DNA of 63,202 bases, filler included, from Perkinsus chesapeaki ATCC PRA-425 (GCA_013115145.1; 13 parts of 13 records of this genome joined end to end with filler, not necessarily neighbours in it), one strand, 5' to 3'; numbered from the whole stretch's first letter, positions 10,801 to 63,202 are shown. The notes: generated from the letters alone by a model not told the origin. Made by a program: numbers and translations.

Positions 10801-12246
10801 ATTTAAAACGAGAACTTGCCAGTTGCGAGTAGCTCGAGCTGCTCCACTACCCTCATGAAAATTGTTCCCCAAACACGGCGCGGAATCTTAGTGCTATACA
10901 CGGTAACCGTGTATAGCACTAAGATTCCACTAAGTGTCACGGTTCAATAGTGAGTGAAAGAGCCCAACTGCGTCAACCTACCCCTCCCTCGAACCTAGAG
11001 TGAGGGAGACTTTCGACTGTAGATTTTTTTCCACTAATTTCAGGAAGTTGCCAAGCGTTGGTGGTCGAGGGTGGTTGATACGGAAGAAGATATCCATTCA
11101 AGACTGGAGGAGTTTATGTCGCAGTTGATAAGCGTACCGGAAGACGCTTTGGTGGTGGTTGGGCATTCACATTTCTTCCGCGATGTGTTTGCCAAATATA
11201 TGTCACAAGAGTAAGGGGACAATTATGATCTCACTTGGCGGAAAAATCGGGACTCCCTTTTTACTGGAAACACGCAGTCGCTTAGACATATCAGAGTATA
11301 TCATATAGAGTTTCAAATTCTAGTTTTATGTTGATTCCATCAGATACAAAAGCGAGCAGCCGGGCTGGACTTATGAATTGACCAGGAAAGTGCTACCAAA
11401 CTGTGGTGTGGCTATGGTCACTTTGAATTTGGTTGAGGGAGTTATAAATGAGCCACATATTACACAGGTAAGCGGGGAAATCTGTATGAGGAAAATTTAC
11501 GGAAAATATAGTAAGGGTAATTATTGATACTATTAAGGGTTTTTGGCGAAGAATTACCCTCGAACTCGAAAGTGCGAGGAAAGATTTCCCTGGAAAATTT
11601 GCTAATAAATAATTTCCCCGCCAGTTGATGGGTTGTATTGTGGTTTGTAACTTGCTGACTCGGTTGCAGTGGCTTATTTTTTTGAAGTGGAAATATTTGG
11701 AAATTTAGGGAAGAAGCTGTGACCGAAATTCAAGTGTAATGACGGCTAATAAATCATTTATCGGTGTGATAACTATATAGAATATTACTTCTGTTATATT
11801 ATACCGAGGCAAACACTCACAATGCTTTGCAGGGAAAACCGTACATCTGGATAAATAGATGAGTACCTTATTGCTTTATATATAATTTATAGTGCTCTAC
11901 TGTATGTTATTATACACATCCGAACTACACAAGTAATCATAGTAATAAATTTTTACACAACCCTCCTCAATGACATATAATATCTCCTTTTTTTATTAGT
12001 ATCTCGTCTGCTATTGGGTGTAAGACCTTAAATTTTTGAATGTATTATACGATTGTATTCCACGGAGACTTCTTTGGTCAGGTTGACTTGTTGTTTGGTG
12101 CAAAACTGGTCCTATCCGGTACCACGCTGGACGGCGAAGGCCAACCGCAAAGGAACCGGAGACGGTTTCAGGGGACCTCGAGATTCTGTTGTTGCTTGCG
12201 AGAAAATAATTTAGTTACTACCATGTCTGAGGAAGGCGCATCTTAG
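7864..12246 (+). CDS. Multi-exon histidine phosphatase / phosphoglycerate mutase-family protein
   Basis: FFVRHGESTWN and CSPLTRAVQTA in the exon ending 9941. In-frame exons 11044-11210 (VVVGHSHFFR), 11344-11467 and 12082-12246. The 5' exons (MGCC start at 7864) are less certain. Confidence 0.8.
10882..10928. repeat. Perfect 47-bp palindrome (23-bp arms, 1-nt centre) in an intron
   Basis: GGAATCTTAGTGCTATACACGGT-A-ACCGTGTATAGCACTAAGATTCC. Confidence 0.97.
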
Positions 12247-12317
12247 GTTGACTCATGATTTACATGTAGCATGTTTGCCTTTTAAGGAGAATTGTCTGGT
12301 TTGAATTGTTTCGTGTA

Positions 12318-12390
12318 GTGCCATTGGGGGGGATCGAACTCTGGACCTTTCGATAGTTAGTTGCGGTATATGTCCACTCGGAGTGGTCCA
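12318..12390 (-). ncRNA. Degenerate tRNA-like (SINE-like) sequence
   Basis: Minus strand TCCGAGTGG (A-box-like) ... AAAGGTCCAGAGTTCGATCCC (B box). No clean cloverleaf. Confidence 0.35.
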
Positions 12391-13553
12391 CAATCGCAAA
12401 CTGCATCTCCACCAAGCAGTAAGTTACTGGTTCACCGGGCCCGGGGGCGACAGTGTTCCTGTTTTACCATAAATTTTTTAGAATTATTTTAGTTTTGCAA
12501 AGAAAATCTTTTCTGGATGATTCTAGCGCTTCCACCATTGCAGAGCGTATTTCCCCTTCGACGACTCAATAAGAGAATTCCAGACTGGAATTCTGGAATT
12601 CACTGGAGTTTCCAGTGGAATCCACTGAGTGGATTCACTATACTGTCGTTTCTCAGGTTCAACTTCGTCTGATTGTGGACAACAACAGCAACAGCAGGGT
12701 AGCAAGAAGCGCGGGAGAGGTGGTGGTCGGAGCGACAAGACGACACAGAGGAATGCTAAAAGGAAGAAGCAACAGAATGATGTTAAGAGCAGCAGTAGCT
12801 CGGATAATGGAGGTGTGTCCTATTACATTTCATTACTATTACGGCTATTATACCCGTGGCATGGCGTTACATGAAGAATCGAGATTTCCGATGATTATAG
12901 GGGAAGTTAATTCCTGAGTGAGAAGAATATTCCTAGAATATTGGCAAGGACGCTTAGCTCGCTTATGCATAGATAGAGTGCGAGTAGAGGAGGAACAACC
13001 ACCGGACACGCTGGGATCGAAATTCGACCTTCTTCTGTGGTGTGGTGCTTCGAGATTCAGGAACGCATCTCATGGCAGATGTTCTGTGGATACGAAGGAA
13101 ATAGGTTTTAAATTATAGCAAACCATAAAGTTTTTTCATGAATACTCAAGTGCATTTCTAACTATCGTCATAAGCACTATTTAAAATATGGCTTATTAGG
13201 CGAGAGTCCAAGTACAGACCCGGTTCCATCGACGTCTTTATCATCGACATCAGCTGATCGCAATGTCTTTGATGGCGCTGCTGCTATGGCTGAGGAGCGA
13301 ACTAAGGTAAGCGTCGCGAATCCCGTCATGGGGCCCCCTTGCGAAATACTGGAAACCACAAGTTGCTGATCTGACATTATCAAATAATTCCCGAAAGGTT
13401 TCGATCCACAACTTGCCTCGGAATCGAAGAGTGTTATACTTTTAACTAAGCACGTATTTGAAATAGTATGATATCATCTGTCATTCAATTAGCATGCGCC
13501 AACTACTAACAATTATACCAGTATGTAGTGCTTGCGCCGTCATCTCCTGAATC

Positions 13554-14066
13554 TCAAAGCCTCACGACCGCTGCAGCCGCCGTTACCACCACAGCGGTTA
13601 GCCAATCGTGGCGCAAGCAGCTTGAATGGCCCACAGAGCCTCCAGCTCGCAGTTGCTTGTCAGGAGCAGCCGTGGTATTCTCGAACATGGAAATGTCCTC
13701 GACAAGGGGACTCATGGACAAGTTGAAAAGCAAGTCGATTCCCTGCAGCATCTGCTCCACCGCAGATGGGGCGGTCGTAGTGTCCATTGGGGTTTCCATG
13801 TACTGAGCTACCTTCTCAAACATCTGCTCAAGTCCAGGACTTGTTGGAGCGGTCGTAGTGTCCATCGGGGTTCCCATGTACTGAGCTACCTTCTGGAACT
13901 TCTGCTCAAGCCCAGGATTCGTTGGCGCCATGGTGAACGCAGCAGGACTTGTGGGAACCTGAGTGGTGGGGCTTTCCACCGTTTCCCATGCAACCCAGTC
14001 GAGGTTCACGTCTTCGAAGAGACCGCCCACCATACGTAGGATGATGGTGAGGATTATTAGAGACAT
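13554..14066 (-). CDS. Putative secreted or membrane protein with an internal 26-aa duplication
   Basis: Hydrophobic N-terminus (MSLIILTIILRMVGGL), two GLEQxFxKVAQYMxTPMDTTTAP units, hydrophobic C-terminus. Confidence 0.65.
   Translation of the reverse strand: MSLIILTIILRMVGGLFEDVNLDWVAWETVESPTTQVPTSPAAFTMAPTNPGLEQKFQKVAQYMGTPMDTTTAPTSPGLEQMFEKVAQYMETPMDTTTAPSAVEQMLQGIDLLFNLSMSPLVEDISMFENTTAAPDKQLRAGGSVGHSSCLRHDWLTAVVVTAAAAVVRL
13771..13926. repeat. 78-bp tandem duplication within the CDS
   Basis: GCGGTCGTAGTGTCCAT... recurs at 13771 and 13849. Confidence 0.9.
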
Positions 14067-14475
14067 TTAAACTGTGTGTTATATAACTCTGAAGAGGTGA
14101 ACTAGCAACCTGGTAACTACCTCGGCCTCATCTTACCCCAGTTGCGCGACGGTCGTAGATGGGCGAGCGAGATCTGCTGCGTGGCGAGCGATTTTCAAAT
14201 TTGCGCAGCGCGCTTTCTGAGCGCACTCCATTGGAAAACCCAAATGTATAGGCGTATTTTCTTTATATTCTTTTCAAATACCCTCCACAATAATATAAAA
14301 ATATCTTCATATCTTCTTGCCTTATCGAGCCACAATATTCTTTCAATACGGCCAGTTTGGTGATCGCGAATTTTCATAGAGGCTTTACGACGGCTAGGAT
14401 TTTGGGTAAACCCTACGCCCGAAATCAACGTGTTTTTGTCAGCGGCTCGACCGGTATTTCGGTTTAGTATGCAGC

Positions 14476-15329
14476 ATGTACTTCGGCTCTGATGGCAGCT
14501 CAGGATCGAAGAATCCCTTCAAAGATCTCTGTTATCGGTAAGCCCGTTGTGCTGTGTTATAGGTTCCAGATGCGGTGCTTTACTGCTCCGAACCAGGGAT
14601 TAACGGAGGAACATGACATATTCCAAGAAGGAAGATATTTTCTTAAAGGAAATTTCTTTTAGTCGGGGAACACATTTTGTAGAAAGGTTTGTGTTATATC
14701 TCGCGTCACAAATTCATAATTCATGTGAAAATGCTTCGCTCAGCTCAGAATTTTTGTTAGGTACGTAGTTGACGATCCAGATGAGCCGGAGACAGAGAAC
14801 CCCCCGGGGAAGGAATTTGATAGGGCTTTACTAAATCTCTACAAGCAGAAGTCCAAGCTGTCATCTACGAGGGCCAGGGTGCCGAATAGGGATTATAATC
14901 GTTCCTTCTCTGCATTAGCGCTTCTGACATCTTCATGCCGGCAACCGGAGGTGGCAATGGACTTTTCATCGATCATAGGGTATCATTATCGATCAGGTGA
15001 TTGATTGTTGGGGACCATACGAAATTGCAGTTTTCGAGACAGCGTTGGCCCGGTACGGCTTGAAGTGCTGGAGTGATGTGTCTCGCGAAATTAAGACCAA
15101 GTCTTCTACAGAGTGCGAAGTGAGCTCCTTTGCGAAGGACTAAGGAGGCTTCATTTGTTTCCAGGAATTTTACCATAGAGTTTACTCCCGAACAGAGCGT
15201 GGACGAATCTTTACTGGAGTTCTTCTGCAGTCGGAGCCCACTGGGCCGGCGACTCCTCCCAAGACCGAGCCGGAGTCTGTCACCACCACTCCAGCCAGTG
15301 GGGAATATAGCAGTCAGAAAAGCTCGTAG
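14476..15329 (+). CDS. Multi-exon SANT/Myb-domain protein; start uncertain
   Basis: Spliced reading VIDCWGPYEIAVFETALARYGLKCWSDVSREIKTKSSTECE|EFYHRVYSRT matches SANT spacing (W..E...FE.AL..YG..W..I...I.TKS..EC..FY). Stop TAG at 15327-15329. Confidence 0.75.
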
Positions 15330-17747: not shown

Positions 17748-17863
17748 GCCACCGTGAATTCCATGGATGCGTGACATTCCTTTCAAGCTTTTCACATTTT
17801 TTTTTGTGTTACGTTCGTTTCTGTTACTCGTTCATGTCTCATTATCAGTCTGAGTCTGTTTTT

Positions 17864-19089: not shown

Positions 19090-19950
19090 TCAAGACGGTA
19101 TGGCTTGCCCGCCGGGCAATGCCCGGCAAGCCTTGATGTCTGAGATGACTGCTAGCGAAAAACATAGCACGTTGAAGATTCGCGCACATTTTGTGTGCAG
19201 AACGTAGGTTGTAGACTGTGACTCACAATTTCCAATCCCGGCTAAGACACTCCTGAAAAACTCGATCTCGACAGTCAAAAGACCCAATGGCTAGCACCTG
19301 TGGTACCACAGAGCCATAATAAGCACCAAAACAATATCGAAGGAGTCCTGCTCTGATATTGTCCTGCTGCAGGACCGAGAAAAAAACTCCGCTGTGATGC
19401 ACTGATTTACGACTAAATAATGCTAACGGAAGGATACGGCGTGAAAAGGAAGTTCCCGAGAGGAAATTCCTTAGGAACTGTTCCTTCAGCAAAGTGGAGT
19501 TCTCCGCGCCTACGCGTAAAGCCTCACCGAGCTGATACACTCTCTGATTTACGACTAAATAGTAAATAAGTGGACACTGCATGTGAAATGCAGCATGTCT
19601 AATCCGTCCTAGATTTGATCTTTAAGTGGTTCAACCTCGAAACTTTCCCTTTTTCCTCGCACACAGCACTCTTGTTTCTTATTCAAACGAGTGATCTTCC
19701 TGGAGATTTCGAGAGGAATTCCAAAGACGGCCGACCCTCGCCATATTGTCAACCTCTACTGTGACGGAGCGAGACGAGGATGAATCCTGTGATCAAACGG
19801 AGAAAGATCGGAAGCGCGTTCAACCGAAGACGCGGAAGGTTTAGCCTTAGACTTGGACTTAGATCTAGGTTCACCAATACGAGATGACTCACTAGTGATT
19901 CTAGGTGATAGCTCAGACTCAAGATGATAATTTGACCTCGTCACAACCAT
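19090..19950 (-). CDS. Hypothetical spliced gene; structure unresolved
   Basis: Ser/Arg-rich first exon from ATG 19950 and further ORF pieces 19223-19582 and 19090-19287. No recognisable domain. Confidence 0.3.
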
Positions 19951-21407
19951 CCCAATACTATCTCAGCGCGACAATTATCAGATGAAGATTACACTTAATC
20001 AGAACCAACTGTTCCGAACTTACACAGTTCAGATCAATACGATTAGATTACAATTCAACCGAACCTGATCCGTACAACCCGTACGTTTCAGGTGATACAA
20101 ACCGTTCCAGATATGCAGATCTAAAACTACTAGATCTTAGTGATCAGATTATTAGGCGAGCGAGATCGGAACTTACATTGTCCCTTTTCCGTGCTGTCAT
20201 AAAGCTCACGTCACGTGACCCGTGAGTCACGTGTCATCAACCAGGGTACGTGAAATCCCATGGTCACTGGGGTTGGGAGGACATTCTCAGCCGGGATCCT
20301 ATGGCTTATGGCTGGAATGTAGACTCTGTCGATCAGGCAGACTTACGCAAAGTCTGCGAGAAGGACGGAGTCCCCCCCAGTAACAAGGAAAGGAAAGAAA
20401 AAAAATATACATAAATGTATGTGTATCCGACCTTTAAGAAGGCCGGCGGTCGGTTGGTTCGGTTCTATCATCCGTTGACCAACCGACACAGTACCGTGTG
20501 TTGTGCGCAATGGCACTAGCCGACCACAGCTTAGCTGTCGTCAGCCTGTCTCGAGTGACACAATCGCGCTGTCCCATATCTGGTGTGGTGACTGTCCCCT
20601 GCGTTCGCTGGACTTTCACATCAGATAACGACATGTCGTTATCTTACACCTATATAGCATCGTCGGCGGGAAAGAGAAATGAGCACGTAAGTTACGTGAC
20701 GTAACGATAGTTTAACGCAAGTGTCTGAAGAAGAGTTTCTCACAAAATTTAGCAACCGCTGCACATCAACTCACACATGCATATGGTAGACTAACATATG
20801 CATGTGTCTACTACCATTGCTAGTAGTAGACAGTTGTGTTGTCACAGTTATGTACGCGCGACTTGGTTTCTGCGTGTAAGAAGGTTATAACCTGAGGGGA
20901 GTAACCCGCCTGTGATATCTGCAAATTGCCTTGAGAGATATCGGACATCTATCTTTCCCTACGCTTAACCTGAGGTGCTCCAAAAATACATAGGGAGCAC
21001 TCCTCCCTAAGGGAAGTAGTACAAGACTTGAACTACTAGAGTAATTGGTCACTGCCTAAGTAGAATGACTACGTGACATTCCCGGAAACCGAGGTCGTTC
21101 AAAATGTGTTACAAGTCTGCTTATCCGGCGGACCTCTCGAGACATTACAGTAATCACCCAGTCCCACAAATATGCGAGCGAATTTTCAACTGGATAATTT
21201 ACACTGTAGGTTAGTGCTTAGGTTATTAAGTCCGTAGTAACGCGTGGCGCGTCACGCGCTCCGTGACACATTCCTGCATTCACTAACTGACTTTGGCTTA
21301 CCTCGTTGACATTTGGTCATTTCCACGCCTGCCTCTACCAGGAGATGTCTGGGTGCCCCAGTCGGTCTCAAGGACCTCGGTGTGCTTATGGCTTTGTGCT
21401 TCACTTT

Positions 21408-22584: not shown

Positions 22585-23498
22585 TCAACTTCCACTTGGG
22601 CAGGTAGATGCCTTAGCTACTACGTTTTGGCCATACATTAGCCTGATGTATGACTAACCAAGGAGACTACTATATAACTGCTAGTATGACTAATAAGACT
22701 AACTCATGGTGCTTAACTGTTTGATGTCGTTATGGAGCTCGATCAGTTCTACAACCTTCGAGTCTCGCCTGTGTCTGAACTATTCCACTCCGAATTATAT
22801 GTTGTATTTTCAGCTACAACTTATATGTCTACACTAATGCTTTTGTTGCGATCGGCATTGCAACTTCGAGATGCATTGCTGTCTTACTTGTAAGATCGAA
22901 GTATATGAGAAGATGCGTAGAACTCCTGCCTGTGTCTTGTTTTGCCCTGCTCAACCTAGGCTCTGCTATGATTGAGTCAACCAGGTTGACCCCTATAAAT
23001 ATCAGCCTGATATTATCAGGCAGAAACATTACGAACTTCCGGGTTTACAGCGGTCTCACTGGCAGTATGTTACCGGTGGATGTATGGCTCCTCTAGCTCG
23101 GAAGTTTAAAGGGTGAAACCTGTCTATCACACCAAAAATAATTGTATCTGAGCCATTGAGGCGCTTTCTTGATGGGCCTAGTCATAATCCTGGAGTTCGA
23201 CCATACTGGACCCTTTCATTTAAAGGCCTTGAACCTTTGCGTTAGTGAGTTGAATTGAGAAAGACAAATAACAGAGTCTCTGTTGTAGAGATGATCCTTA
23301 ACATTGCATCTGTTTCAATGAAGCAGCTCCATCATAGATTTCCTGCGAACCAGGCAAAGGTCCTCATCTGGTTGATAAATGACCGTCACCATGATAAAAT
23401 TTATCTAAACGTGCCTTGAATCATCTATATAGACGATAGTAGTTGTCGTGCAGGCTGAGGATGAATTATAGTATGCTCACAGGACCTTCTCTCATAAT

Positions 23499-24605: not shown

Positions 24606-25510
24606 AAGCAAGCTGTTGGGTTGGTGATTCGCGAATGATTGTGTTAGCGTCTATTATCTCCTCATCATCAGGACTTATGTTCCCTTCGGTTTGCATCATA
24701 TAACGTGTTCATCAGGTAAGCGGGCACCTCAGATCGCTTCACGCGAAATACGGCCTGCATACATTCCTTGCTCGCAATTAACACAGGCCAAGTGATGGTA
24801 ACGCGAAGTGTCCAGCAGAAATTCGGAGACATCAGCGAAGTGTCGATGCACGTTGCTTGTGCTCTGGTCTTTGTTCTCGTTTTTACACATGTTACTACAA
24901 TATGAGAGCTCAAGGTGAGTGAGAGCATTTACGGTGGGCCTAGTTCTCTCAACTGGCCGACGGCCAGTAGAGTACGGCCGCTGCCGTAGGCTGCGACACA
25001 TCGATGCGTTAATAATTCCTACAGTTAGTAAGATACTAATACATACAACCTTGATAATACAACCTTCAGTTCGGTTGTATCGTTAGAAGTATCATCGCAT
25101 TCTACGTGAACCCAAGGCATAGAATGGCTGTAGAAGAAGGGAATATGTAGTCGCATTCTTGCACTGTCCATGATATAGACTGCATTAACAGTTAGACATT
25201 CGTCACAATAGTTGTCCCATAAACATCGCGGAACCTCAGCAGCTGAGGCTCAGCTTAGCTATTACTCCCCGCGGGATATTTGTTCTATCTCTTCATCTGG
25301 TTTGTAGGTGTTCTATACATTACATACTTCACGCTCGTACACGTTTACCAAGGTCCAAGCACAACCTAACTAATGTCATTGGGGAGAGCGCTGGTCGTGC
25401 CTAGGCCTTANNNNNNNNNNNNNNNNNNNNNNNNNNNNNNNNNNNNNNNNNNNNTTAATTAATTAANNNNNNNNNNNNNNNNNNNNNNNNNNNNNNNNNN
25501 NNNNNNNNNN

Positions 25511-26359: not shown

Positions 26360-26839
26360 AACTATAGTGGCACTACTGGTGGTCAAAACCGTGTATTTGT
26401 ACAGAAAAATATGAGTATGTCTTAGATTCTTGTCCATCCTTATTTTCTGTTGGGTTGAGTGGGGGACGCTTCACATCATTCCATTTTTGTAGGTTTATTT
26501 CGGTGAATGGCCAGCAAGACTTCCAGATCCTATGCCTTCTCGAGCTCATCCACTGCACCCAAACGCAAAAGTGAGTCACAACAGATAGACTAATAGCGCA
26601 CAGCCCTAACACAAATCAGTAGAACAGTGTAGCTCAGTAGAAAAGGGGAGTGGCGGATACCGCAACTATAGTAGAGAATCTCTACTAGAGATGGACAAAG
26701 GGTCGAATGTGAACGAACATGACACAAAGTATTTTTCGCTCGCCGAGCGGGAATCTTTTGGGCTTGGCCATTAGTCCTACAGTGTGCGAGCACACTGGGC
26801 ACACAGAGTACAGTGTGTACCTACAGCAGCCCCCATCAC

Positions 26840-29491: not shown

Positions 29492-29911
29492 TGCATGTTT
29501 CCTTTGCGTTGATCAGAGCCTTACGGCGACCCCAAGGGACATTGTGTCTTCGACTTTTACACAGAAATGGTCGCCAACTGTACATGCCCAACCGGGGAGA
29601 TCCCTCTGACCCTTGGAGTAAGCATGTTACTCTCAGTTCGTTATATCAGTGAATCTCCTATGTCAGAACAACCAGCACATCTGTGGCCCCTCCTCTTTCA
29701 GTACGACTCTGATTGCCCCAAGCCACCCGACGGTATTACAGCTGTACCTGAGTGTCTCGTTGCTCGCATGTCGACGGCTTGTCAGCTGGATCGTAAAAGC
29801 CAGCAAGTAAAACAATAAATCACCAATTCGGTTATAACCAGAAATGTCTTTTGATAGGACTGTGCAAGCGGGCGTAACTGTGCGGGTGGTTTGTGTGTCT
29901 TCAGCGGCTGA
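29492..29911 (+). pseudogene. Cys-rich small protein, paralogue A, frameshifted
   Basis: Same exon structure as 31040-31593, but the middle exon is 1 nt shorter before TCTGATTGC and has lost Cys codons. Confidence 0.7.
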
Positions 29912-31039
29912 AGTTCAGCCACTGACACCGTGCGTGGGGAATCCCTGCGTCTACAGCTCCAGAAGATTCTGGCATTGTACATTCTCTTACAAGAGAATGC
30001 CAGAGAATCTTACAAGAAACACACATCTTTGCAAACTCTATGAGGAACCTTTCATTGAAGTGTCAGGGATGTACCGTTCACATTTTATTGTACGAGACTT
30101 CGTGCCGCAAACTATCGCGGCTTCACATGGTGAATTATTTGTCCTGTATTCACCGTGAATCTTATGTTCACTATAGTGTCGCGTTGAACGGTTAATAGTG
30201 ATCTATTACTCTGCCCCGGATCCGGCACACTCGCCTCCAATAAGCCAGCTAATGTTCAACACATTATTCGAGCTTCTGTTGGGTCCCCTGGTGTCACCGG
30301 ACAGGTGACATCGGGAGAGATCAAGTGGAGATAACAATTCTCAGCTCCCTACCCTGGCTAAGTTATACCAGAATCATAGCACGATTGATCTAGTACTAGT
30401 TCACATAGGATGATCTAGCCAATACTGTGAAATACTCCAGCTAATACCAATGACCCCTCCTGCAGTGTCAGGGGTCGGAGCGCCTGCTGTCTGCAGAGTA
30501 GCCTGTTGTCTACCCTTCTGAGAAGGGCCTTCTCGATTCTTATTTGTTGAAAACCTCGAGATGGCGAGGGCGGCTTGGATGAATCTGGCGGTCTCACGAG
30601 GCTGTATTCAATACAGTATATTGGGCTATTTAGCAGGTTACCTGTTTGAGGAGGTTTCGTTTATTCGAGGACCTGTTCCCCAACAAGCGAACTATCAGCC
30701 CACAGGCGCGATGCGCCCCTCCATGGTTGCAATGTGCTTAGCTTAGGCGAGGAGCTTGCGTGCAAAAGAACACTGTCATCTACTCTTCCAGTATTTGTAG
30801 GCGCTGTGTTTAACATTGTTCCTCGCATTATCGTTATCACCTACCTTTCTGAATGAGTGACTAAAACATCTCCGAAGTGTTCGAATTGTCACTAGGGAGG
30901 CTCGGTCTATAGGCACAAGACGGTACAATTTCTTTACGACTATGGTATCTTGGGACTTTTTATGTAGTTATCATGAAGCAAGCATTCCTTATTGTCACCC
31001 TCCACCTGATCCTCCCCGAATGCAGCGGCGTCTCTGGAA

Positions 31040-31593
31040 ATGAAGGTGGGCATGTCATTGAATAAGAACGTTGGGATCACTCTCATAGAAAATGCTATAT
31101 CTCCTGCTTGCCCGGAGTTCACTGTACCGTGTTAGATGAACTCACAGATTTGGATCGCTACTATACATACATGTCGCTCCTGTGTTACTCAGCTCCTTAC
31201 GGCGACCCCAAGGGACATTGTGTCTTTGACCCTCACACAGGGCTGGTCAACAACTGTACATGCCCAACCGGGGAGATCCCTCTGAGCCTTGGGGTAAGAG
31301 GGATGCACGTTACTCTCAGTTCGTTATATCAGTGAGTCTCTTATGTCAGGATAACAAGCAAATCTGTGGTCCGTCCCCTTGCGACGTCAACTCTGATTGC
31401 CCAAAGGCACCCAAAGATGCTACAGCTATACCTGAGTGCCTCGTTGCTCCGGTGCCGACAGCTTGCAAGCTGGATTGCAGGAACCAGGAAGTGAAGCAGT
31501 ACATCACCCTTTCGGTCATCACGGTCTCGCTTTTGTTAGAAGTGTGGAAGCGGGCGTACATGTGTCGGTGGTTTGTGCAGTTTCGTCCACTGA
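31040..31593 (+). CDS. Cys-rich small, probably secreted protein, paralogue B
   Basis: Spliced PYGDPKGHCVFDPHTGLVNNCTCPTGEIPLSLG|DNKQICGPSPCDVNSDCPKAPKDATAIPECLVAPVPTACKLDCRNQE|KCGSGRTCVGGLCSFVH*. The 5' exon structure is ambiguous. Confidence 0.75.
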
Positions 31594-31863: not shown

Positions 31864-31942
31864 CTTCGGGGTTCTCCATGGCAGCACGGAAAACCAAACG
31901 GCCAATACGACCGAAACCATTGATACCGAGTTGGCAAACCAT
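31864..31942 (-). CDS. GAPDH: Glyceraldehyde-3-phosphate dehydrogenase, 5' fragment
   Basis: [26 protein letters not shown], cut by the gap. Confidence 0.95.
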
Positions 31943-41528: not shown

Positions 41529-41592
41529 AACTAATAATATAATAATAAATACTACTATAAAACACAACAGTAAATTTGTAACAACATCGACC

Positions 41593-43025: not shown

Positions 43026-43066
43026 TAGTGAATAACTGAATAAACTGATTAGGGGGTGTTGGAGTA

Positions 43067-43378: not shown

Positions 43379-45004
43379 AGGTTTGAACATTATTCAAGTG
43401 TAAATGTTGAATGGAAATGGTCAACTGTGTTGTGTCCACTGTCCCTGTATGCTAGTAAGCTAGGCTAGTACGCTAGTGGCCAATATCCCCATATCCATNN
43501 NNNNNNNNNNNNNNNNNNNNNNNNNNNNNNNNNNNNNNNNNNTTAATTAATTAANNNNNNNNNNNNNNNNNNNNNNNNNNNNNNNNNNNNNNNNNNNNAT
43601 GTCTCGATATTCGGTTTTCAGTAAGAACCAGTCCAAAAAGTTCCTAACGAAGCGCATGCTTCGTACCGGGTACGGCCATAACGGTTCGGCGTACCCTTGT
43701 TTCTGCGGGAAAGGACCTTCTCAAAAAGTGTTGTAATTTACCACTAATGAAAACTCGTACATTTTTACGGTCCTCTCACCAATGATCGGATCGGAGATTC
43801 TCTAGTGGAGGAAGATAGGAAGCTATAAATTTCAGCTTCTAAACTCCTCCCCAAAATAATGAACTGAAGAGGACCCCAGATGGTCAACTTCAAACTTGAA
43901 CCAAATCCCGGCACCACCACCATGAATGTTTTCAGTGTTCACTGAGCCCAAGGATGATCTTTGAAAGATCGAAATAACGCACTTTGGCCCTACTGTTCGG
44001 GTGTTTCCTCAGGATCCATAGTTAACACAACAGTTAGGAATATATACCCAACTATAATAATAAGTAACAATAACATCAATAACTGGACAATTAGCTAAGG
44101 GGACAGTTATTGTGCAGCTAGAAATATATAAGTGTGCAAGTGTATGTCTGGGAAATGCTCACACTACCCCGAGAAAGTTCCAAAGTATCCGATTCAACAG
44201 TACGTTTCACATCTTTATCATCATTTTTGCTCCAGTTGGACTTACGGAACATGGTATTGAGAGAACGGATTCCGTTCTCTCCGATTTCAGTTCAACGGAA
44301 ATCAAGGTGTCATCCTGTGGATTAAATGCTCTATGGGAGAGACTCAATGCACTGATACAAAAAGCTTATTGGAAACTCTAGTGAATCACTAGTAGTGATG
44401 AGGCACTTGGTCCGCACTCTTACGCTTTCTTTTGACCACATTAATATTCAGTTAGGAGGATTCCACAGGACTAAACTCGAAGCAACCTCGGATAGGATAG
44501 TCTCCGGAGGAGTTCCTAGATCATCAACGAGCCGGTGGTTTCCGGTCGAGACGTGGCTATCAAAAGGTACTCAACGCAACACAGATGCTTTTATGAACCA
44601 CCCAAAGTTCAAATACAAGTTTCGAAGTTAACTATTAACACTCCACTGGATGGCGCAGCACTAACAAAATATACNNNNNNNNNNNNNNNNNNNNNNNNNN
44701 NNNNNNNNNNNNNNNNNNTTAATTAATTAANNNNNNNNNNNNNNNNNNNNNNNNNNNNNNNNNNNNNNNNNNNNACTACGTCCGTTCATCGCCTACTACT
44801 CTGCCTACTACACCTATATCTGCAATCTTCTAGGTGTTGCGTCTCTAAGAGTCTCGCAGTGATACTCTAAACCCCCAAATCGCTGCTATTTTATTACGTA
44901 TATAGCGTGCGCCATACTAATCGATAATGGGGGTACGGGAGGGAGCGAGAGAAAGAAGGCATGTATACTACTACTTTAGATTGTTGTTGTTGTTTATTGT
45001 TATT

Positions 45005-52549: not shown

Positions 52550-53300
52550 ATCTACTGCGGTTTATGAAAACAGAGCCGGAACACTTGGCCTCAACGCAGG
52601 TTGGTGCATTCAACTCGGATTCAAGCATGAATGATTCGAGTAAAATGTGTGGTATAATGAAGAGGCAGCGTCAGACCCTCAGCCATGCTTGCGGTAACAC
52701 CATTTGCCGCTTCTCATAACGAGTGCTCACCCCAAAGGGATGGGACGCTCCCTGCCTTAATGCTCCGTCACATCGAGTCGTTCGTTCCCTGATGAAGCCC
52801 CGCGACTATTCTGTTGAGGTTAGACTGTGGGCTCGTAACGATTTTCGTGTTCGAGCCATCGTGATCTCATAAGGAAGACGTTATGCTCCAACGTGGAACA
52901 TGGCAGAGCTGTGACGTTGCAAAACACGTGACGAGCTATGACGAAACAAACCCTCCAACGTTGAAAGTTTCAACTTGAAACTACTTCTGTATTACAGAAT
53001 CTGTAAGAGTCAACTCGTCAAGCGAATAACAGCTCCGTAACGTTAAAACAAGACCCCGAATCTGTGACAGATTATCTGTCGAACTGGAGACACGACATAC
53101 CTTCACCAAAATCCGAAAGCAAGAGACCCTTTAAACATGTTTAAGCAGTGGTGGGGAAATCTTCATCCAATAGTCCTCAAGGAAGTCTATGGCTCTCAAG
53201 GAGGAAGTACCCAACTCGGCCTACAGTAGGCGGCCTACTACACTTCTCACACTTCTGTCAGTCACCTACGAAGACATGACAGGCACCATTTTTCCCATTA
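52550..53300 (+). pseudogene. Possible decayed retroelement integrase region
   Basis: Broken frames with AVTPFAASHN and MFKQWW...LKEV fragments loosely resembling an LTR integrase C-terminus; multiple stops. Confidence 0.25.
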
Positions 53301-54573
53301 AACGAGAATGAATTAATGGAAAGGCCTCAACCGCTTTTCCAAGGGAAGTAAGGCTTCCCTTGGAAGTAAGTTCTGTGTTCGAGTATCAGCATCGCTTCGC
53401 ATCAAGAGTGTTCAAAATACAAGGAGCACCTCGCTCGGGTTTTTTCTTGAACAGCATCCACAAGAGCCCCCTATAGCAGATTATAGATGGCTCTAGTAGA
53501 AGGCTCACATGTAGAAGAAACTTGTGACTCTTCACCTTACAAAGAACCAACGCGAACTTGGGGAAATGCACCGAGCTCACAAAAGTCCTGCATTCACTCG
53601 ACACGAGTCCCATGTTCACCATTTCTGACATCTGGCAGATATTCTGTACAAGCGCGCAAAGCCCCCTGATGTGCATCATGGACCCTCGGGTTGACGACGC
53701 CCTTCAGCTTTTTCTCTCCTTCTGTCAGAGCTCCAACCAGTATATCCAGAAGCTTAAATAGCCTAAAGTATGTCCCATAAGATTCCTCATCGATAATAAT
53801 TATCTCTTATGGGAATTATTCCCATAAGAAGAAACGAAGGTGCGGCTGTACTCATGACATACTGGGTTGTACCTGATCTATTGAATTTTACGTCTATTAT
53901 GACATTTGCATGATGACAAACAAACCTACCACACTCTAGATGTCCCTATCCACAGAACTTTCAAATCTCTCTGGATGATTTTGTTTTGAGCATCCATGCA
54001 TAGTGGAAAACCGCTCGGCATAGAACGAATATGCCAATACAAGAATGCCAGGCTGGCATTGCCAGTATACGAGAGCGAGAAGAGGTGTAGCTGCCATACA
54101 AATCGCATAGTCGTCCCTCTACGGCGATCTGCTATCTTAGTCATTTTGAGGCTGAAAATATTACTAGTTAACACGAGACTTACAAAAGGCAGCATTTACT
54201 CGTGGTTAGAAACGTTGTTTGAATATGCTGTAATGCTGCATTACTAATGCATTAAATGCCCTTGGTTAGCTTCCGTTTAACTATTAGTTATACATGGCTC
54301 ATATGAAAGTGTCCTAATGAAAATCGTATTATGAGTCCTTGTTGGCGTCTCGTATCCATGGAGAGTTACTACCTCGACAAGTCGGCGGATTGGTCAGATA
54401 ATCAAAAGGGGCCACTAACTGATTGGGGTCACTAACTGATTGCGCCCTTAAGGCTAATATAGCTAATCTATGTCTGCGCGGTCACGACGATCGCGCGCCA
54501 TCTCTCTACAGTCCTGTAACGAACTCACACATGCCGTAACGGGATCCCTCGGGGATCATCCCCGTTAGACGGC

Positions 54574-55245: not shown

Positions 55246-56457
55246 TTACAAGGGTCCGAACAGCCTAGGTGAACGGATAGGAACAACACTTATGGTTATC
55301 CCACCAGCTGAATCATAGGCACAGCTGCTATCAAAAATCCCGTCCCCGCTACATAGGAGGGGGAAACGTTTTGAACGGGTAACACAACAATCCAACAGAC
55401 ACGGGTAATCATATGTAAACTGAATAACGTCATCAAGCTATCATCACCATCATCGGAAGATTATCATACCATAGACAATCTCGAAGCAATCTCCTTCACT
55501 TGGCACGGCCAAGTTGGCAGGCATTGATAAGGTAAACTAAAATGATAGAACAAAAGAAGGGATAGAGGAACACCAGTCAGTTCATGTGTTTTTCTATCAG
55601 AGCGTTTCTTTGGCGGTTTCGTTCGCACGCTACAAAAGATTTGCCATCGAGTTTAGTCGTTGGAAATCCGTAAAATCGGGCTGGGAGAACCTCCCAGGGT
55701 GCTTATCTTTTACATATGTCACACTGAGGCAGCCACAGCAGCTTAACGATTTTCAACTTCATTTCATTATCGCAATTCGTAAGGACAAGCCTAATTGGGG
55801 TGCCAGAACCATCCGTTATGAATTTCTGCGCTATTTGATGATGTTACTGAGAAGCAAATCAAGGGGGTGCTCTCCAACTCGATACCGTCGCCGACTTGAA
55901 GCAAGTTCTCGCCGCGGCGTGAGATGCGATACCTTTCGTGACAATAAAGAATGCTCGCGAAGGATGGAGGAGAAGACTCAAACTCGTCCAGAAAGCGAAT
56001 GGAGGCCACTTTGAGCACCTTCTCTAGGTCTGCCAGCGGTTTCCGTGCAATTTCGTGGCGTTTCGTTCAATAGCACGAGTCGCACACCGTGGCAATGGCT
56101 TTGAATGACATCCTAGTATATAGAAGAAAATGAGAGCTTCGAATGGTATGAGTCTCGGGTTCCAACTCGTTCGCAATAAAAAGTTACAGGGGGTGAGCCT
56201 TAGCTTATTGAACACCCTGTTTATCTTAATAAGATAATTTTAATAAGATTATCTTATAGAGTTGCGAATTGTAACGCCATCTACACGGTCCAGATTCTAC
56301 ATGCCAATAGCCATTAGTGACTTAGCGTNNNNNNNNNNNNNNNNNNNNNNNNNNNNNNNNNNNNNNNNNNNNNNNNNNNNNNNNNNNNNNNNNNNNNNNN
56401 NNNNNNNNNNNNNNNNNNNNNNNGCGTAGATTACAGGTGATTGAACTGACCCACGCG

Positions 56458-56502
56458 CGCAACAAAGACTTTGACAAAGTCTTTGTCAAAGTCTTTGTTG
56501 CG
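56458..56502. repeat. Perfect 45-bp palindrome (22-bp arms, 1-nt centre)
   Basis: CGCAACAAAGACTTTGACAAAG-T-CTTTGTCAAAGTCTTTGTTGCG. Confidence 0.97.
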
Positions 56503-58024
56503 ATGTAACAATCGCATGTCAACATCGATGTTAACATTGTAACAATGTTACAAAGTGACTCACAAGGAATCTTTGTCAAAGATTGCGTCACCGTCATTTC
56601 TATCCAGTCGAAAATGACATTTAAATACACTGTGTACTATATACGTACTTCGTATTACGTAGCATAGAACGTAATGTTGATTCAACGACAGCTTCAGGAC
56701 CTCCAATATATCTACGGCTAAACGAATGCAGACGTCCGAGGCTCGGAGTCCTGTTATGGTCTCCAGTGGCCATGTAGTCCTGTATATGTATAGTACCATG
56801 TAGGTTCCTGCCTAGTTCTCGTTGAGCGCACGTAGCAAGCTACCGTACCATTACGGGACTCCCATATACAAAGTGGTCGTAGCTGTTTATTGAAGAACTC
56901 CTTTTCTAAGGAGAAATGCCCCTCATCTTGAATTCAATTCCTAGCTAAGTGGCCTTGCGACGAACCCATTGCCTTTTTGGATTCGCCATTGAGAAGAACA
57001 TTCGTGAATGATTATCGTACATAGCCATGAACCGTTCAGATTCATCATGATTCATGAACGATTCATCCACTGAGCCGAGGACTATACATCACGCATAATA
57101 CAGTGTTATCTGAGCATAGTAAACTATGAACTTCGAACCGTTTCTTGGCGAACGGGGAGTTCCCACTCAGCAACATGAGCCAAATCCCAAAAAAATGCCA
57201 TCTGAGTAAAGTAGACTGAGCCAACCCTGAATCGATTGCTAAGCTTTCTCTTTCTTCGCTTATAATTTGCCCTTCACTCGCTCACCTGCTTGTTTTGAAC
57301 GCTTCTTAATATAGAGCTCATCCTCCAACCGTGACTGCCATAGGAGTCTGGCAGTCATGGCTGGCAGGGGCAAGGGCTTGCGAGGACAGTCTACCAAGAA
57401 TGACTCATCAATGATGACTCATCATCGAACCGTTACTGCTGATCTGCGGCAGGGTGTATTTCGTCACCTCCCGACCCAGCAATATTGAGCTGGGCCACGA
57501 GATAGTCTAGAAGCGGCCCCCTCCCAATCTTGCGTGCGCGGGTTAGACTTGATAACTCAACAGACGTCTGTCAGACACAGCACACTAGAAGATATCATAG
57601 AACATCTCCAACGCCTTTATTCTCAACGTGCGGGAAGACCACCACACCGCAAACAGTGTTGATGCTCTTACTTGTACTGGTCTCTTGTGGAACCTGTCAC
57701 ACCCATACGGCCGCCAACTACGCTGTACTCCTACCAGGGCGGCGTTCCTTAATGACGCAGAAGCACTCGAGTCTCTTCCTTGGGGCATACACGAACTGTG
57801 GTAAATTACGCGTTGGAAGGTTGTCTCGCCGAGCCTCGAGCTCTTAGTCGCTTCACTTCGTTGCTCTCTACGAACTTCCTCTATGGACACATTGGCCGTG
57901 CCTAAGGAACTGTCTCATGGGCACNNNNNNNNNNNNNNNNNNNNNNNNNNNNNNNNNNNNNNNNNNNNTTAATTAATTAANNNNNNNNNNNNNNNNNNNN
58001 NNNNNNNNNNNNNNNNNNNNNNNN

Positions 58025-59367
58025 GTCTGGATGATAGTATCGGTTGTCTCAAAATAACTACTAGTAGGTGATGGACAGATGCATCTCTTAGAAGTACTAG
58101 CTGTTGGAGTACTTGCAGGTGTTGATTCAATAGTAGTTGACGTTGCGCTGACTGAGCTAACCGTTGTTGTCTGCTCAGTTCTCGTTGTAGCTAATGAAGT
58201 GGCCGAGGAGCTTGCCGTAGATGAAGTAATAATAAGAGTTGTAATTGTGGTTGTGCCAGAAGGGGTTGTACCGGTTGTCGTACTAGTCGAAGCTGTAATA
58301 GTTGTCGCAGTCGTACGGCTGGCTTCAGTAGGAGTATTCCCGTTTGTACTAGCGCCAGCTGGAGTCGTTGTGGTGGTTGTGGAGCTTGCCTCAGTCGCAG
58401 GTGCTGTCACTGGGTGTCTTTCCTTCAGCCACTCATATGTGCTCTCCACAACGGGTTTAATAATGATGGTGTCGGGAGGGCATGCTCTGAGGGTAAGCAA
58501 CAGATAAAAACAGAATACAGCGGCGTTATGGGTTTACCTCATATGTAAAGATGTATCATGTGGTGAGGTTCTATAGTAACCTTTCATACACCAACATGTT
58601 TGATAATCAGCATACCAATTATAAGTACACCACTCAGGAGGGCTCTCATTGGGGTACCCTAAATGACAAAAAGCTGTCTGATATGCCGTCGATGCGACAA
58701 TTCTGACTTACACTTTGGAGCATAATTCTCAAGAGATTGATCGGAACAATTGCTGGCTAGGTCTATACCATGTGGAGGAAGGAGCACGTATCTCGGGACT
58801 TTCTCGTAACAACTGAGGAAGTGACCAAGGGTGCCGAAGAATAATAATAGACTTACAGCCAATCTCTATCCTTCTTGCCGTGGTCATTGCCATCATCGTT
58901 CGGATCGAGAATGCATCCTGAGATGGCACGACATCTTGCGGTGGTCCACCAAGTGGTGATGAATTACTATATACACTGGGGGACCTCTTGAAGGGTTCCT
59001 TGTCATGCTCATTTTCATGTAGACGGACACAGAACCTGAGGAAGATAAATCTACGAGCAAGAAAATTCAGAGCCATCTGCTGTGGTTACTCTATTATTTC
59101 CTTTTCTTGTGCTCCATACGTAACAGCGTTTCTCCACTTATTGCTACACTTGAACTGCCCGGGCTTCTCATAGCGGCCTTTGCCGTTGGCGTAGATCTCC
59201 CAATAAAATCCGTGGACTTCTTTCTTGATTTTTGATTGCCCTGAAGAAAAACTCAAGTAAAAGGCGAAAGTAGTGGGCTTACATGCATTCTTGTTGTCTT
59301 TTGGTAGAACTGTGCGGCCTGACACTAGAGTTGGTGTTGCGAGAGTGAACAATGTCACGAGCTTCAT
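58025..59367 (-). CDS. Secreted mucin-like (Thr/Ser-rich) protein, copy A; multi-exon, 3'-truncated
   Basis: Signal MKLVTLFTLA, intron after KNA, WEIYANGKG...FKCS.KW.NAVTYGA, Cys-containing exons, Thr-rich tract, KRCICPSPTSSYFETT. Confidence 0.8.
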
Positions 59368-60305
59368 GCTACAGTCAATTACCAACAACTAAGTTGTCGC
59401 AGATCTCTAAGGAACCCCGAGAAACATTACGGAGCGACCTAGTGAGCCGTGGACATCTCTAAAGGATCGATGACTTAAAATAAGCGTTTCAAAGCGATTA
59501 TGAAACTGACCGGCGACGCTATCATGTCACTGGCAGTTTCAGAATGGAACGGTGGTTCTCGGAGCGCTTCTCCAGCGCTGGTATTAAGGAACATTCTACA
59601 GGGACTACATTCTGCAGGGATTATCTGGTAGTTCACAGAGACGTACAAGAACGAGCTCAAACCATCGGGGGGCATATGGACTATTGGCATGCCAAAGAAA
59701 TGCTCAGTCACTAACAAGGCACACACGACATTATTACCGCAATCTACTAGTGTTCGGTATTGTTATTATTCCTCAAGAACTCGTATATCATTTGGCAAAG
59801 TTGTTGACATTTTCTTAGTAAGAGCCTTATTGTAAGACATGTGTAGAAATTGGGCCTTTGCCAGGTCATCTCAACCCGGAGACCGTCGACTTGCCTCCTA
59901 AACAGGATTGTAGGCAAAAGGACGAACATTACTCGTCGGATTATGTTCCGAAGGGCATAAAGCCACAAGCTGTTTTATGTAAGTCAATACTGATAGGGTA
60001 ATAATAATGACAATAACTGATAACTTGCTCACTATGAGACGTACCGGTGTGTTGTGGCCCATCATATGCATTATATTACTGTGTATCAGTAATAAAATAG
60101 GAAGGAATACAATAGGAGCATGTCGTAGATAGATTCATGCTTGCTAGAGCGAGAAAAACGGGCGATCCTACTGAAACTGTCGGGGCCCTTCGCTATACTC
60201 GTTTCAAAACGGCTTGAAACGGCACAGAGAGGCAGGTGAGTCTACTGTTTAACAGGCAAATTTGTTCGAGATCAGCTTGTCAAGTTGACTTTAACTCCTA
60301 CAGAT

Positions 60306-61633
60306 ATGAGGCTCATCTCATCTCTAGCTTTGGTGGCTGTCACATTACCAGATATGGTATTAGCCCGCACTAGGCTACCTAAGGATAATAAGAAAGCATG
60401 TAAGCTAACTATTGTGAAGGAAGTTCACTCCATTCCTTGTGGGGTATTACTGCTCCTTTTTCAGGGCAACCAAAGATAAAGAAGACGGTCAGCGGATTCA
60501 GATGGGAAATTTACGCCAATGGACGTGGAAGTTATAAGAAGCCTGGAAATTTCAAATGCAGCGGCAAGTGGAAGAACGCCGTCACTTATGGAGCTCGAAA
60601 GAAGGAAATTAAAGAGTGAGTCGCATATAATCCACTTTAGTGGATTTAAACTACTCACGCATTGGTTATCAGGTTCTGTGTTCGGCTGCATGAGAATCAG
60701 CAAGATGATAGGGGCTATAAGGATGCTCCTAAAAAATACAGTAATTAACCTCACATGGATCTACAAGGCTCTACGGACCTTTAGGATGCATTCTTGATCC
60801 AAACGATGACGGCAACGACCATGGCAGGAAGGACAGAGATTGGCTGTAGCTATAAAATGCAATATTTGATTTTACAGATTTCCTGTCTTAGTTGTTACGA
60901 GAAGGTCCCGGAATTTGTGTTGCTTCCTCCGCATGGTCCAGAATATAAAAGCAATTGCACCAGCCTCGACGACTATGTGCCGAAGTGTAAGTTGAGGCTT
61001 TGGATTTATGACATCATATTTCAGGGTACCCCAATGAGAGCCCTCCAGAATGGTGTACTTATAATTGGTATGCTGATTATCAAACATGTTGGTGTATGAA
61101 GGGGTTCTATAGAACATCACCACATGATACATCTTTACACATGAGGTAACCCACATTTTAATTTCATCAATTGGATGTGTATTGAATAACAATGACGGCA
61201 TTTACGATATTTTTCTCAGGGCATGTCCTGACGATACCATCATTATGGAACCAAGGCTGGTTTATTCGTATGCTTGGTTGGAAGCAAGATACCCTCCCAC
61301 CACAACTACCACTACGACAACAACAACTACCACTACAACAACAACCACTACAACTACGACAACTACCACAACTACTACAACAACAAGCGCAACAACTACT
61401 TCTACCACCACTACAACTACTACGACTACAAGCTCTTCTCTGCCTACTACGGTCTCAGCGGTCACTTCAACTCCAACCACAACTGCCAGTACTACAGCAG
61501 TTGGTACTTCTAAGAGATGCATCTGTCCGTCACCTACTAGTAGTTATTTTGAGACAACCAATACTATCATCCAGACAACTTCAAGCCCTACAACAGTTAA
61601 ACCTACAGTTGCTGTGACTACAACATCGGAGAG
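60306..61633 (+). CDS. Secreted mucin-like protein, copy B; multi-exon, 3'-truncated
   Basis: Same exon series as copy A in the opposite orientation, with a long poly-Thr run and the same KRCICPSPTSSYFETT motif. Confidence 0.8.
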
Positions 61634-63202
61634 NNNNNNNNNNNNNNNNNNNNNNNNNNNNNNNNNNNNNNNNNNNNTTAATTAATTAANNNNNNNNNNN
61701 NNNNNNNNNNNNNNNNNNNNNNNNNNNNNNNNNCAACATGTCGCGGAGCTGCTTCGCGACATGTTCGCAAAATTTTTCTGAGTAGTGCAAAAGTGTATAT
61801 TTCACCCATCGCCATGTGGGCAATTATCAATTTTTCAATTTGGTTGGAAAAACACCAATGAGAGGAAAAGCTAACAAACAGAGTTATTCCCAACCGGTTA
61901 AGGAAAAACCAGTTGGCAAAAGGGCTTTATAATAAAGCCTTTATTCGGAACGGGAGATCAGAATCTGATCTCCTGTTATCCTGTATCTGATCATTAGATT
62001 CCTTCTCAACATTTGTCAGTGCTATGTTTCTCATTGTTCAACTCAGGACTGGACGATGGCAAGGTCATAGTAACGAATAACAATAGTGGTTATGGCTTCA
62101 AATTATTACTTATGTAGTATAGCAAATTAACTAGCGTAACAACTTTGTGTTCCAGACAGATTAGAGGATATACAAGATGGCAAGATATAACAATATTTAC
62201 TCATCGATCAATAAAATACTATCACAACATTTCATCTTGAGATACTAATAACTTCAGAGGTAGCTCAGCAGCTATCTATAGCGTCTAAACCGTCATCTAG
62301 CAGCTAGCTTCTAGCTCTCAACTTTCATCATTTGTCGGCTCTCCAGATAACATTGGTGTTGGTGAGCGTGAGGGGCGCTATGTTTCCAACTTTGTATATG
62401 AGCGTGACTTGGGCCTCAATGAGGCCATTTGGGGTACCAATTTGGTACCCCAATAACGATAATAGTTGCTGGTCTAATTCCCCTTCGAAGTTATGTTGGT
62501 CGTTTCCTAAGGAAACTTGGTCATCTTCAAGAAAAGTATAGATTCCTTGTACTCAAGTTGATCATTGCGATGATAACGAGGCCTTCCAAGTTATAACTTT
62601 TCAAGTTTAACTTGAGGATCAATTGAAGGCTTCTAAGGAATTCTACATTTGTGCTTGCTAATCGGCTACATCCCTTCACGATGAGTTAGCTATTATTGAA
62701 GGTATATGATTCATTGACTTTGTTAGTTTGTTTATATATTGGTGACTTTTTTGTTGCTTAGAACAAAACCTGCTTTACAGGCGTGCTCAACATACCTGCA
62801 CGCGTGCGTGAGCAACATTTGGTTACCATGTCACAAATGGTCCATGCGCGACTCCACAACACAACCCTCACCGCCTCGTCCAGAATCTTCCTTAAATGGA
62901 AGGATATTGACTCATAGAACATTCGGGATGAACCAACAAAAAAGCTGAGTTGTCTTAACGCCTCAGACTTGCGCAGTAACAATCACATTTCAACAAACTA
63001 GCTAAAGATCAGAGATATTTAGCAAATGGTATTGCGCCCGACAAGTCATATTTTCATCATCGTCCTGCATACTGACTAAAGCTTATGCATAAATGCACAC
63101 CCAGCCTAGGTTGCTCTGTTTACAGACCATGTCTCCGGGACACCTTTCGAAGATCTGAAGCACATTCAACATTCAACATTAACTTTTTAAGTTACGAAGA
63201 CG

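Follow-up and report, generated by a model that had tools for sequence, protein, structure and literature searches.

The hAT, Transib, RAG and MULE transposases form hairpins on the DNA that flanks the element, and host enzymes then open these hairpins (PMC5499845). In the Ac/Ds system, cleavage is described at the flanking nucleotide (PMC1978519), and the footprints reported in PMC5873905 contain palindromes that are centered on the complement of the base that adjoined the element, with arms of up to 20 nucleotides (nt) in yeast and microhomology at 85–100% of the joints in Arabidopsis and yeast; the available text of PMC2868825 and PMC4561436 gives the general Ac hairpin model and nothing more specific. 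Here we analyze a 63,202-nt stretch of DNA from Perkinsus chesapeaki ATCC PRA-425 (the window, that is, 13 contigs joined by masked linkers) in which a first-pass annotation, made from the sequence alone, had noticed an excess of perfect palindromes with a single-nucleotide center. Many of these palindromes belong to a fixed 22-base pair (bp) unit; the units are probably excision scars of a hAT-type DNA transposon that duplicates 8 bp of its target, a reading to which we assign a probability of about 0.78.

The palindrome excess

The excess of odd-centered palindromes in the window is real. All 12 palindromes in the first-pass annotation are exact in their coordinates and arm lengths, and the number expected there by chance (about 1) is close to the shuffle mean for arms of at least 8 bp (1.5±1.3); however, the excess had been undercounted, with 26 such palindromes present rather than 12. 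Our background was a set of 60 dinucleotide shuffles in 500-bp blocks, with palindromes counted by arm and spacer. In the whole window, perfect inverted repeats with arms of at least 6 bp number 115 at spacer 1 and 13–29 at any other spacer from 0 to 12 (for spacers 0–12 in order: 29, 115, 22, 16, 13, 26, 22, 21, 25, 28, 21, 24 and 20), so the comparison of spacer lengths that the first-pass annotation proposed does, within the window, give a spacer-1 peak above background. When the spacer-1 palindromes are divided by arm length, there are 43 with arm 6 (shuffles 14.3±3.8), 46 with arm 7 (4.1±2.3, maximum 11) and 26 with arms of at least 8 (maximum 6 in the shuffles), that is, a sharp peak at arm 7. 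The same three classes contain 20, 5 and 4 palindromes at spacer 0 (shuffles 15, 3.3 and 1.6), 14, 3 and 5 at spacer 2 (11, 3 and 1; the last count is just over the shuffle maximum of 4) and 9, 6 and 1 at spacer 3 (10.8, 2.9 and 1). Each of the four bases occupies the center of the spacer-1 palindromes at roughly the same frequency, and palindromes with arms of at least 6 bp are present in 11 of the 13 contigs, in agreement with the earlier remark that they span several. A 27-bp tandem array (43066–43377) has an odd palindrome of arm 6 in its unit and contributes 8 of the 115.

A fixed 22-bp unit

The arm-7 peak is one of two diagnostic features that the first-pass annotation lacks; the other is that many arm-7 palindromes overlap pairwise with their centers 7 bases apart. 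Each such pair is one 22-bp unit that is composed, for an 8-mer X, of positions 1–7 of X, the reverse complement of X and positions 2–8 of X. Thus, both copies of an 8-bp target are kept, each minus the base adjoining the position of the element, as in a footprint, and the 14 added bp are fully determined by X, the flank and not the element being their source. The units with at most one substitution, together with the empty counterpart of one of them, are as follows (the entry at 56221 also contains two units with 2 substitutions).

12613..12634: exact unit, X = CAGTGGAT; includes the palindrome 12618-12636
14638..14659: unit with 1 substitution, low complexity
19105..19126: exact unit, X = TTGCCCGG
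19578..19599: unit with 1 substitution, in the inverted middle copy
20684..20705: exact unit, X = CACGTAAC
22969..22990: unit with 1 substitution
22999..23020: exact unit, X = ATATCAGG
25234..25255: exact unit, X = CCTCAGCT
26671..26692: exact unit, X = GTAGAGAT
29899..29920: exact unit; lies in one of two tandem copies, of which the other lacks 14 bp at this place
30513..30534: exact unit, X = CCCTTCTC
30602..30623: unit with 1 substitution
31581..31588, strand +: empty site corresponding to 29899, in the paralogue; one 8-mer with a 5/8 match to X
43949..43970: unit with 1 substitution
44378..44399: exact unit, X = CTAGTGAT
52960..52981: exact unit, X = GTTGAAAC
52985..53006: exact unit, X = TTCTGTAA, 3 bp after the preceding one
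53059..53080: exact unit, X = AATCTGTC
53218..53239: unit with 1 substitution
54045..54066: unit with 1 substitution
54230..54251: exact unit, X = GTAATGCA
54543..54564: unit with 1 substitution
55499..55520: unit with 1 substitution, in the middle copy
56221..56257: overlapping units at 56222 and 56229 (2 substitutions each) and 56236 (1 substitution); adjoins a repeat end
56562..56583: unit with 1 substitution; includes the palindrome starting at 56568
56641..56662: unit with 1 substitution, in the middle copy
57404..57425: unit with 1 substitution
61924..61945: exact unit, X = GCTTTATT; includes the palindrome starting at 61923
62295..62316: unit with 1 substitution

The length of X is fixed. 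Exact units number 14 for 8-mers (0 in 60 of 60 shuffles), 1 for 6-mers and 2 for 7-mers; two of these three shorter units sit within compound scars of the 8-bp type (vide infra). Lengths 9–12 give no exact unit and were rejected, and lengths 3–5 are inseparable from background and were left out of the shuffle test. The polarity is also fixed: a layout with uncomplemented center bases and an even-centered layout (at length 8) yield 0 units each and were likewise rejected, so the count of 14 complemented, 0 uncomplemented and 0 even centers agrees with what PMC5873905 describes for Ac/Ds footprints. A count by the spacing of the target duplication gives 20 at 8 bp and about 1–4 at other spacings. 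Scoring substitutions by parsimony across the three copies of X, we find 14 units without a substitution, 14 with one and 16 with two (means of 0, 0.08 and 1.0 in 12 shuffles); the substitutions are spread over all three copies, the middle one included. With tandem arrays and the AT-rich contig masked, direct repeats of at least 6 bases with period 14 number 41 (10.2±2.7 expected; z = 11.5), the highest among periods 5–20.

The 28 units with at most one substitution correspond to about 0.45 per kb in 62 kb and are unevenly spread among the contigs (p = 3e-5). The statement in the first-pass annotation that the palindromes share no sequence is correct insofar as no common sequence exists, but the units do share one geometry and a weak preference for T at position 2 and A at position 7 of X (T2/A7). 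Its conclusion that a process, rather than a repeat family, is responsible is borne out by a fixed 8-bp geometry among units that have no sequence in common.

Tests of origin

A tandem duplicate within one contig (29505–29989 and 31181–31654, 77% identity) provides a comparison with an empty site: in the alignment, the shorter paralogue lacks exactly 14 bp at the 29899 unit and has one 8-mer there that matches X at 5 of 8 bases. The second comparison of this kind, an inverted gene pair (58025–61633), offered no usable unit. The genes of that pair are paralogues with Thr-rich, mucin-like tails, and an old scar with 2 substitutions lies between them (59817).

The 28 units provide 56 half-sites, from which palindromes of the AT-rich contig were excluded. 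Of the half-sites, 27 have T2 or A7 (background 0.28, p = 0.001); nTnnnnAn is the target consensus of the Ac family of hAT elements (PMC8961557). T at position 4 or A at position 5 is found in 16 of the 56, the background level, so the nnnTAnnn consensus of the Buster family (PMC3499496) is unmatched. None of the 28 units lies within long open reading frames (ORFs), which cover 22% of the window (13 ORFs picked by length and by eye; p about 0.001), as expected because a gain of 14 bp shifts the frame.

The units are also found in separately produced sequence, a check suggested by the first-pass annotation: the window is nearly matched by contigs of four public runs, which come from two samples and two studies and possibly represent the same strain. 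The contigs of run X5 are identical to the window (0 differences) over 10595–19683, 22560–25294, 52526–54509 and 56424–57924, and 18 of the 20 units compared (of 28) are unchanged among the public-run contigs listed. Related DNA was not found in two metagenome scans, and no RNA data matching the one stretch searched were among the matches listed. The same runs bridge the 95-N assembly gap at 56329–56423 almost directly, all four of them, so its true length is near zero.

A proposed mechanism

Several features can be read directly in the DNA, namely, the unit with its 8-mer, junction bases that are complemented, 14 bp more than in an empty paralogue, the T2/A7 bias and the avoidance of long ORFs; from this geometry we infer the element, the hairpin and the annealing. 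In every footprint feature open to testing here, the units behave like an Ac/Ds footprint. The hAT transposase Hermes nicks one base into the flank. In the proposed pathway, an element would insert and duplicate X; its transposase would nick one base into each flank and close the flank into a hairpin, with the complement of the element-adjoining base at the tip. A host nuclease would then open both hairpins at least 8 bases 3′ of the tip, so that the two 3′ overhangs would start, over 8 bases, with the reverse complement of X and with X, respectively; these stretches would anneal, the flaps would be trimmed and the gaps filled. Any opening at least 8 bases from the tip on both ends would yield the identical 22-mer, and this would explain the uniformity of the units. 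Opening on the opposite strand would give uncomplemented centers, and such centers are absent here. Ends that failed to anneal in this register would be left with long fold-back arms (of as much as 23 bp) and with fillers copied from a template, as in the compound scars described below. Conversely, annealing via positions 2–7 of X would restore the site invisibly, in which case the scars record just part of the traffic.

The first-pass annotation had offered footprints of a hairpin-forming transposase as one of several possible sources; the data support this proposal and point, more narrowly, to a duplication of 8 bp in which the junction base on either side is complemented. We also considered, and find doubtful, a broader possibility, namely, that hairpin repair in Perkinsus, even with Ku70, Ku80 and Lig4 retained, is nearly deterministic (far opening and annealing over the whole duplication) and that a hyperactive or domesticated hAT-like enzyme has left tens of thousands of 14-bp scars, which shift reading frames and can be dated, and almost no resident elements. 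Were it true, a RAG-like mutator would be shaping intergenic DNA and inactivating duplicate genes.

Probable compound scars

Four longer structures also contain two halves of an 8-mer target, separated by fold-back arms and filler; they are listed here with the one-sided palindromes.

10882..10944: compound scar, X = ACACGGTT; left half with a fold-back arm of 23 bp, then a short filler, an arm of 3 bp and the right half
12574..12616: compound scar, X = ATTCCAGT; 10-bp arm and filler; overlaps the 12613..12634 unit
44259..44300: compound scar, X = GAACGGAA; an arm of 11 bp, then filler, an arm of 3 bp and the right half
56458..56556: compound nested scar, X = AACAAAGT; left half, about 80 bp of repeated fold-back copies, right half at 56549-56556
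53805..53829: odd-centered, one-sided palindrome with an arm of 12; no second half of a target lies within 100 bp of it
61953..61973: odd-centered, one-sided palindrome with an arm of 10
62429..62453: odd-centered, one-sided palindrome with an arm of 12

The compound scars contain the two longest palindromes of the first-pass annotation (arms of 23 and 22). The scar at 10882 has complemented junction bases on both sides and is unchanged in run X5 (record 27); the scar at 56458, which includes the palindromes starting at 56458 and 56532, is unchanged in the same run (record 24). To find such structures, we took the 31 palindrome centers (arms of at least 7) that lie outside the units, dropped 3 in the AT-rich contig and, for the remaining 28, looked up to 100 bp away for the other half of X, separated from the first. 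An exact second half is present for 3 of the 28 (10905, 12584 and 44270), compared with 0.6% of random positions; a 9-mer version of the search gives 0 of 28. The fourth compound center (56468) was added after its partner half had been noticed by eye. In three of the four cases, the second center has a 3-bp palindromic arm. With the compound scars included, 8 of the 12 palindromes of the first-pass annotation fit the 8-bp geometry (those at 10882, 12574, 12618, 56221, 56458, 56532, within the filler, 56568 and 61923); the other four (52531, 53805, 61953 and 62429) are one-sided and without a unit.

The search for the maker

The maker of the scars likely belongs to the hAT superfamily, judging from the sequence features described above. 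Several candidates were rejected. The multi-copy element at 55592–56219 has a CAGGGTG-type terminal repeat, the one clear TIR (terminal inverted repeat) end in the contig with the highest density of scars, and a cluster of scars adjoins its right end; its other copies are followed by TA after the end and have the inverted end before 55592, and with TA at that position we rejected the repeat as the source of the scars. This element is likely Tc1/mariner-like, and the search among longer proteins found no relative of its ORF (weak evidence). Footprints of Tc1/mariner type, which have a TA duplication and retain end bases of the element, were rejected because position 1 of X has T in just 7 of 56 cases, fewer than any other base, and nothing of an element is left. 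Dada was rejected because 6- and 7-mers give just 1 and 2 exact units and the tRNA gene at 33089 has no scar. A 6-bp tandem form (35 observed, 15 expected) was rejected because z falls to 2.2, like that of many other periods, once runs are counted singly. Scans for TIRs with target site duplications (TSDs) returned matches that are AT-rich or weak and at chance level only.

The following observations weigh against a hAT-type origin of the scars or limit what it explains. Units with at most 2 substitutions contain 41 of the 72 centers with arms of at least 7 and just 11 of the 26 with arms of at least 8; after the addition of the 3 compound centers and 2 more in the 56458 filler, 26 of the 72 remain without a unit, compared with about 6 expected by chance. 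No transposase domain, of hAT or any other type, was found by comparing 150 window ORFs of at least 75 amino acids (26 plus 124) with Pfam, and exact and relaxed scans of the 62 kb found no convincing element with TIRs and an 8-bp duplication. Short footprints of the Ac style, as usual for Ac in plants and yeasts, are not clearly enriched (3 vs. 1.2±1.1 for the double-transversion form). The T2/A7 bias is only moderate, and the empty-site comparison is a single case with a 77%-identical paralogue that matches X at 5 of 8 bases. No allele with an element or without a scar was among the matches listed for the four runs, which represent two samples that nearly match the window. Finally, P. marinus was scored positive for Ku70, Ku80 and Lig4 (PMC6635534; Ku also in PMC11936186), so we rejected loss of classical end joining for this species, and such a loss does not explain the uniform outcome; the available text of PMC8062965 mentions end joining generically only.

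Alternative explanations

The same hairpin-and-anneal pathway could have been followed by another superfamily with an 8-bp duplication, that is, by a MULE, or by Merlin if it forms hairpins on its flanks. The MULE Muta1 does so and has TSDs of 8 or 9 bp (PMC5499845), Merlin has TSDs of 8–9 bp and two preserved ORFs in P. marinus (PMC8101967), and the Pfam comparison of the window ORFs revealed no hAT. However, where MULEs have TSDs of 8–10 bp, the window has units of length 8 and none of 9 or 10 bp, the target bias fits hAT elements of the Ac family instead, and no MULE element is seen in the window. Furthermore, more than 90% of Muta1 excisions in yeast are precise (PMC5499845), and the available text on Merlin is without the word "hairpin" and describes Perkinsus copies without a findable TIR or TSD (PMC8101967). 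We consider a MULE or Merlin origin unlikely.

The scars might instead have formed with no lasting insertion, by the action of a free or domesticated hAT- or RAG-like transposase in one cycle of insertion and release or on bare target DNA. The contrast between at least 28 scars and zero resident elements with an 8-bp TSD in 62 kb is in the direction that this predicts, scars that are nested or adjacent mark hot spots, and the clustering by contig (p = 3e-5) fits repeated local action; but the unit requires two copies of X, as given by strand transfer and fill-in, and we regard an origin without insertion as very improbable.

Template switching in replication or repair, that is, a short inverted triplication or snap-back synthesis of the polymerase-theta type, would require no transposon. 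This explanation, close to the strand-switch synthesis suggested in the first-pass annotation, draws on the long fillers at 10882, 12574 and 56458, which are templated fold-back copies, and on the one-sided palindromes with arms of 10–12 and no partner half. As the main source of the units it finds no support: there is no known reason for an 8-bp unit with a 1-nt loop and both junction bases complemented, other lengths and the other polarity are essentially nil, and a hAT-like target bias is not predicted. Template switching may account for the long compound fillers, but there is little chance that it produced the units.

The weakest alternatives, a library or assembly artefact (the assembly is fragmented, with 13 contigs in the window) and selected binding sites for homodimeric proteins (another suggestion of the first-pass annotation), are negligible: contigs from two studies contain the units letter for letter (e.g., 0 differences between X5 and the window over 10595–19683), all three copies of X carry the graded substitution load expected of ageing genomic DNA, and the units have no sequence in common beyond the weak T2/A7 bias, one of them behaving like an exact 14-bp insertion relative to a paralogue.

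Other features of the window

The distribution of scars varies with the contigs. The 11.6-kb contig at 31864–43498 contains 0 scars (about 5 expected); its genes include an intron-rich, elongation-factor-G-like GTPase, a tRNA-Thr and small secreted-looking paralogues. Two retroelement-like ORFs are also without a scar: one of 1466 amino acids (2982–7379), with gag/protease-like motifs recognized by eye and no Pfam match, and one of 517 amino acids (27841–29391) that matches RVT_1. The contig at 44775–48585 is 25% GC, compared with 40–53% elsewhere; it has an ORF with a syntaxin-like end (by eye), its palindromes are of low complexity, and it may come from a contaminant or represent a separate compartment.

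Two multi-copy repeats (19763–20765) exceed their flanks in summed contig depth by factors from several to tens and have no long ORFs; they are possibly the terminal repeats of a retroelement. A very AT-rich stretch of 124 bp (8783–8906) is located within a repeat with ATATCCG motifs, and other copies have about 7 letters there; it is possibly captured filler DNA. The 282-amino acid ORF at 25511–26356 has a weak match to Parvo_NS1 (E = 0.0017, under the curated cut-off) and likely encodes a superfamily-3-type helicase of a mobile element. The 377-amino acid ORF at 23472–24602 has a relative in Perkinsus olseni (62% identity over half its length).

Significance

The excision chemistry is already known; what appears new is a dense and stereotyped natural record of it. 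In the literature searched, which left most subscription journals out of reach, we found no description of this scar in Perkinsus, nor of its natural excess across a genome; yeast or plant footprints already in print may include the 22-bp product. Cut-and-paste excision is usually nearly invisible in genomes, whereas in the window every event marks its site with a self-decoding tag of 22 bp, from which the target site, the duplication length, the polarity of cleavage and, from the substitutions among the three copies, a relative age can be read. Extrapolating 0.45 per kb from a window that is clustered and rich in fragments to the 86.6 Mb of the P. marinus genome (PMC6635534) would give roughly 39,000 scars. 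With such a set, past rates of transposition and excision, target preference and the way in which hairpin ends are opened and joined in an early-branching alveolate could be measured directly; another possible use of the scars is as markers of strain or phylogeny in this parasite of shellfish.

Comparison with known systems

Transib and RAG duplicate 5 bp; the window shows no clear 5-bp signal, a length that was not set against shuffles. Like the MULE Muta1, Transib and the coding ends of RAG1/2 (P nucleotides) have a flank hairpin that is opened by a host enzyme (PMC5499845), a likeness to the pathway proposed here. Muta1 differs in that its TSDs are of 8 or 9 bp and its excision is mostly precise (PMC5499845), and the window has no 9-bp units. 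Dada and Merlin are found in the same genus and have DDE transposases, and Dada is related to hAT and MuDR (PMC3706591, PMC8101967); however, Dada has TSDs of 6–7 bp within tRNA and snRNA genes (PMC3706591), and the one tRNA gene in the window is free of scars.

The hAT systems are closer. TcBuster, which belongs to the Buster family, has an 8-bp TSD, flank hairpins and small insertions templated by the flank, but its target is nnnTAnnn (PMC3499496), whereas the window has T4/A5 in 16 and T2/A7 in 27 of 56 half-sites. Ac/Ds, studied in plants, Saccharomyces cerevisiae and Candida albicans, has in common with the window the flank palindromes, the complemented center, arms of up to about 20 nt, microhomology, the 8-bp duplication and the nTnnnnAn target (PMC5873905, PMC1978519). 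The Ac/Ds footprints in these papers are induced, heterogeneous and mostly short, and arise at one donor site. In the window, direct repeats at period 14 number 41 (10 expected) and those at period 8 number 20 (13.2±3.6 in the shuffles, that is, 13 expected); one long product dominates at many independent natural sites, with the whole duplication serving as the microhomology.

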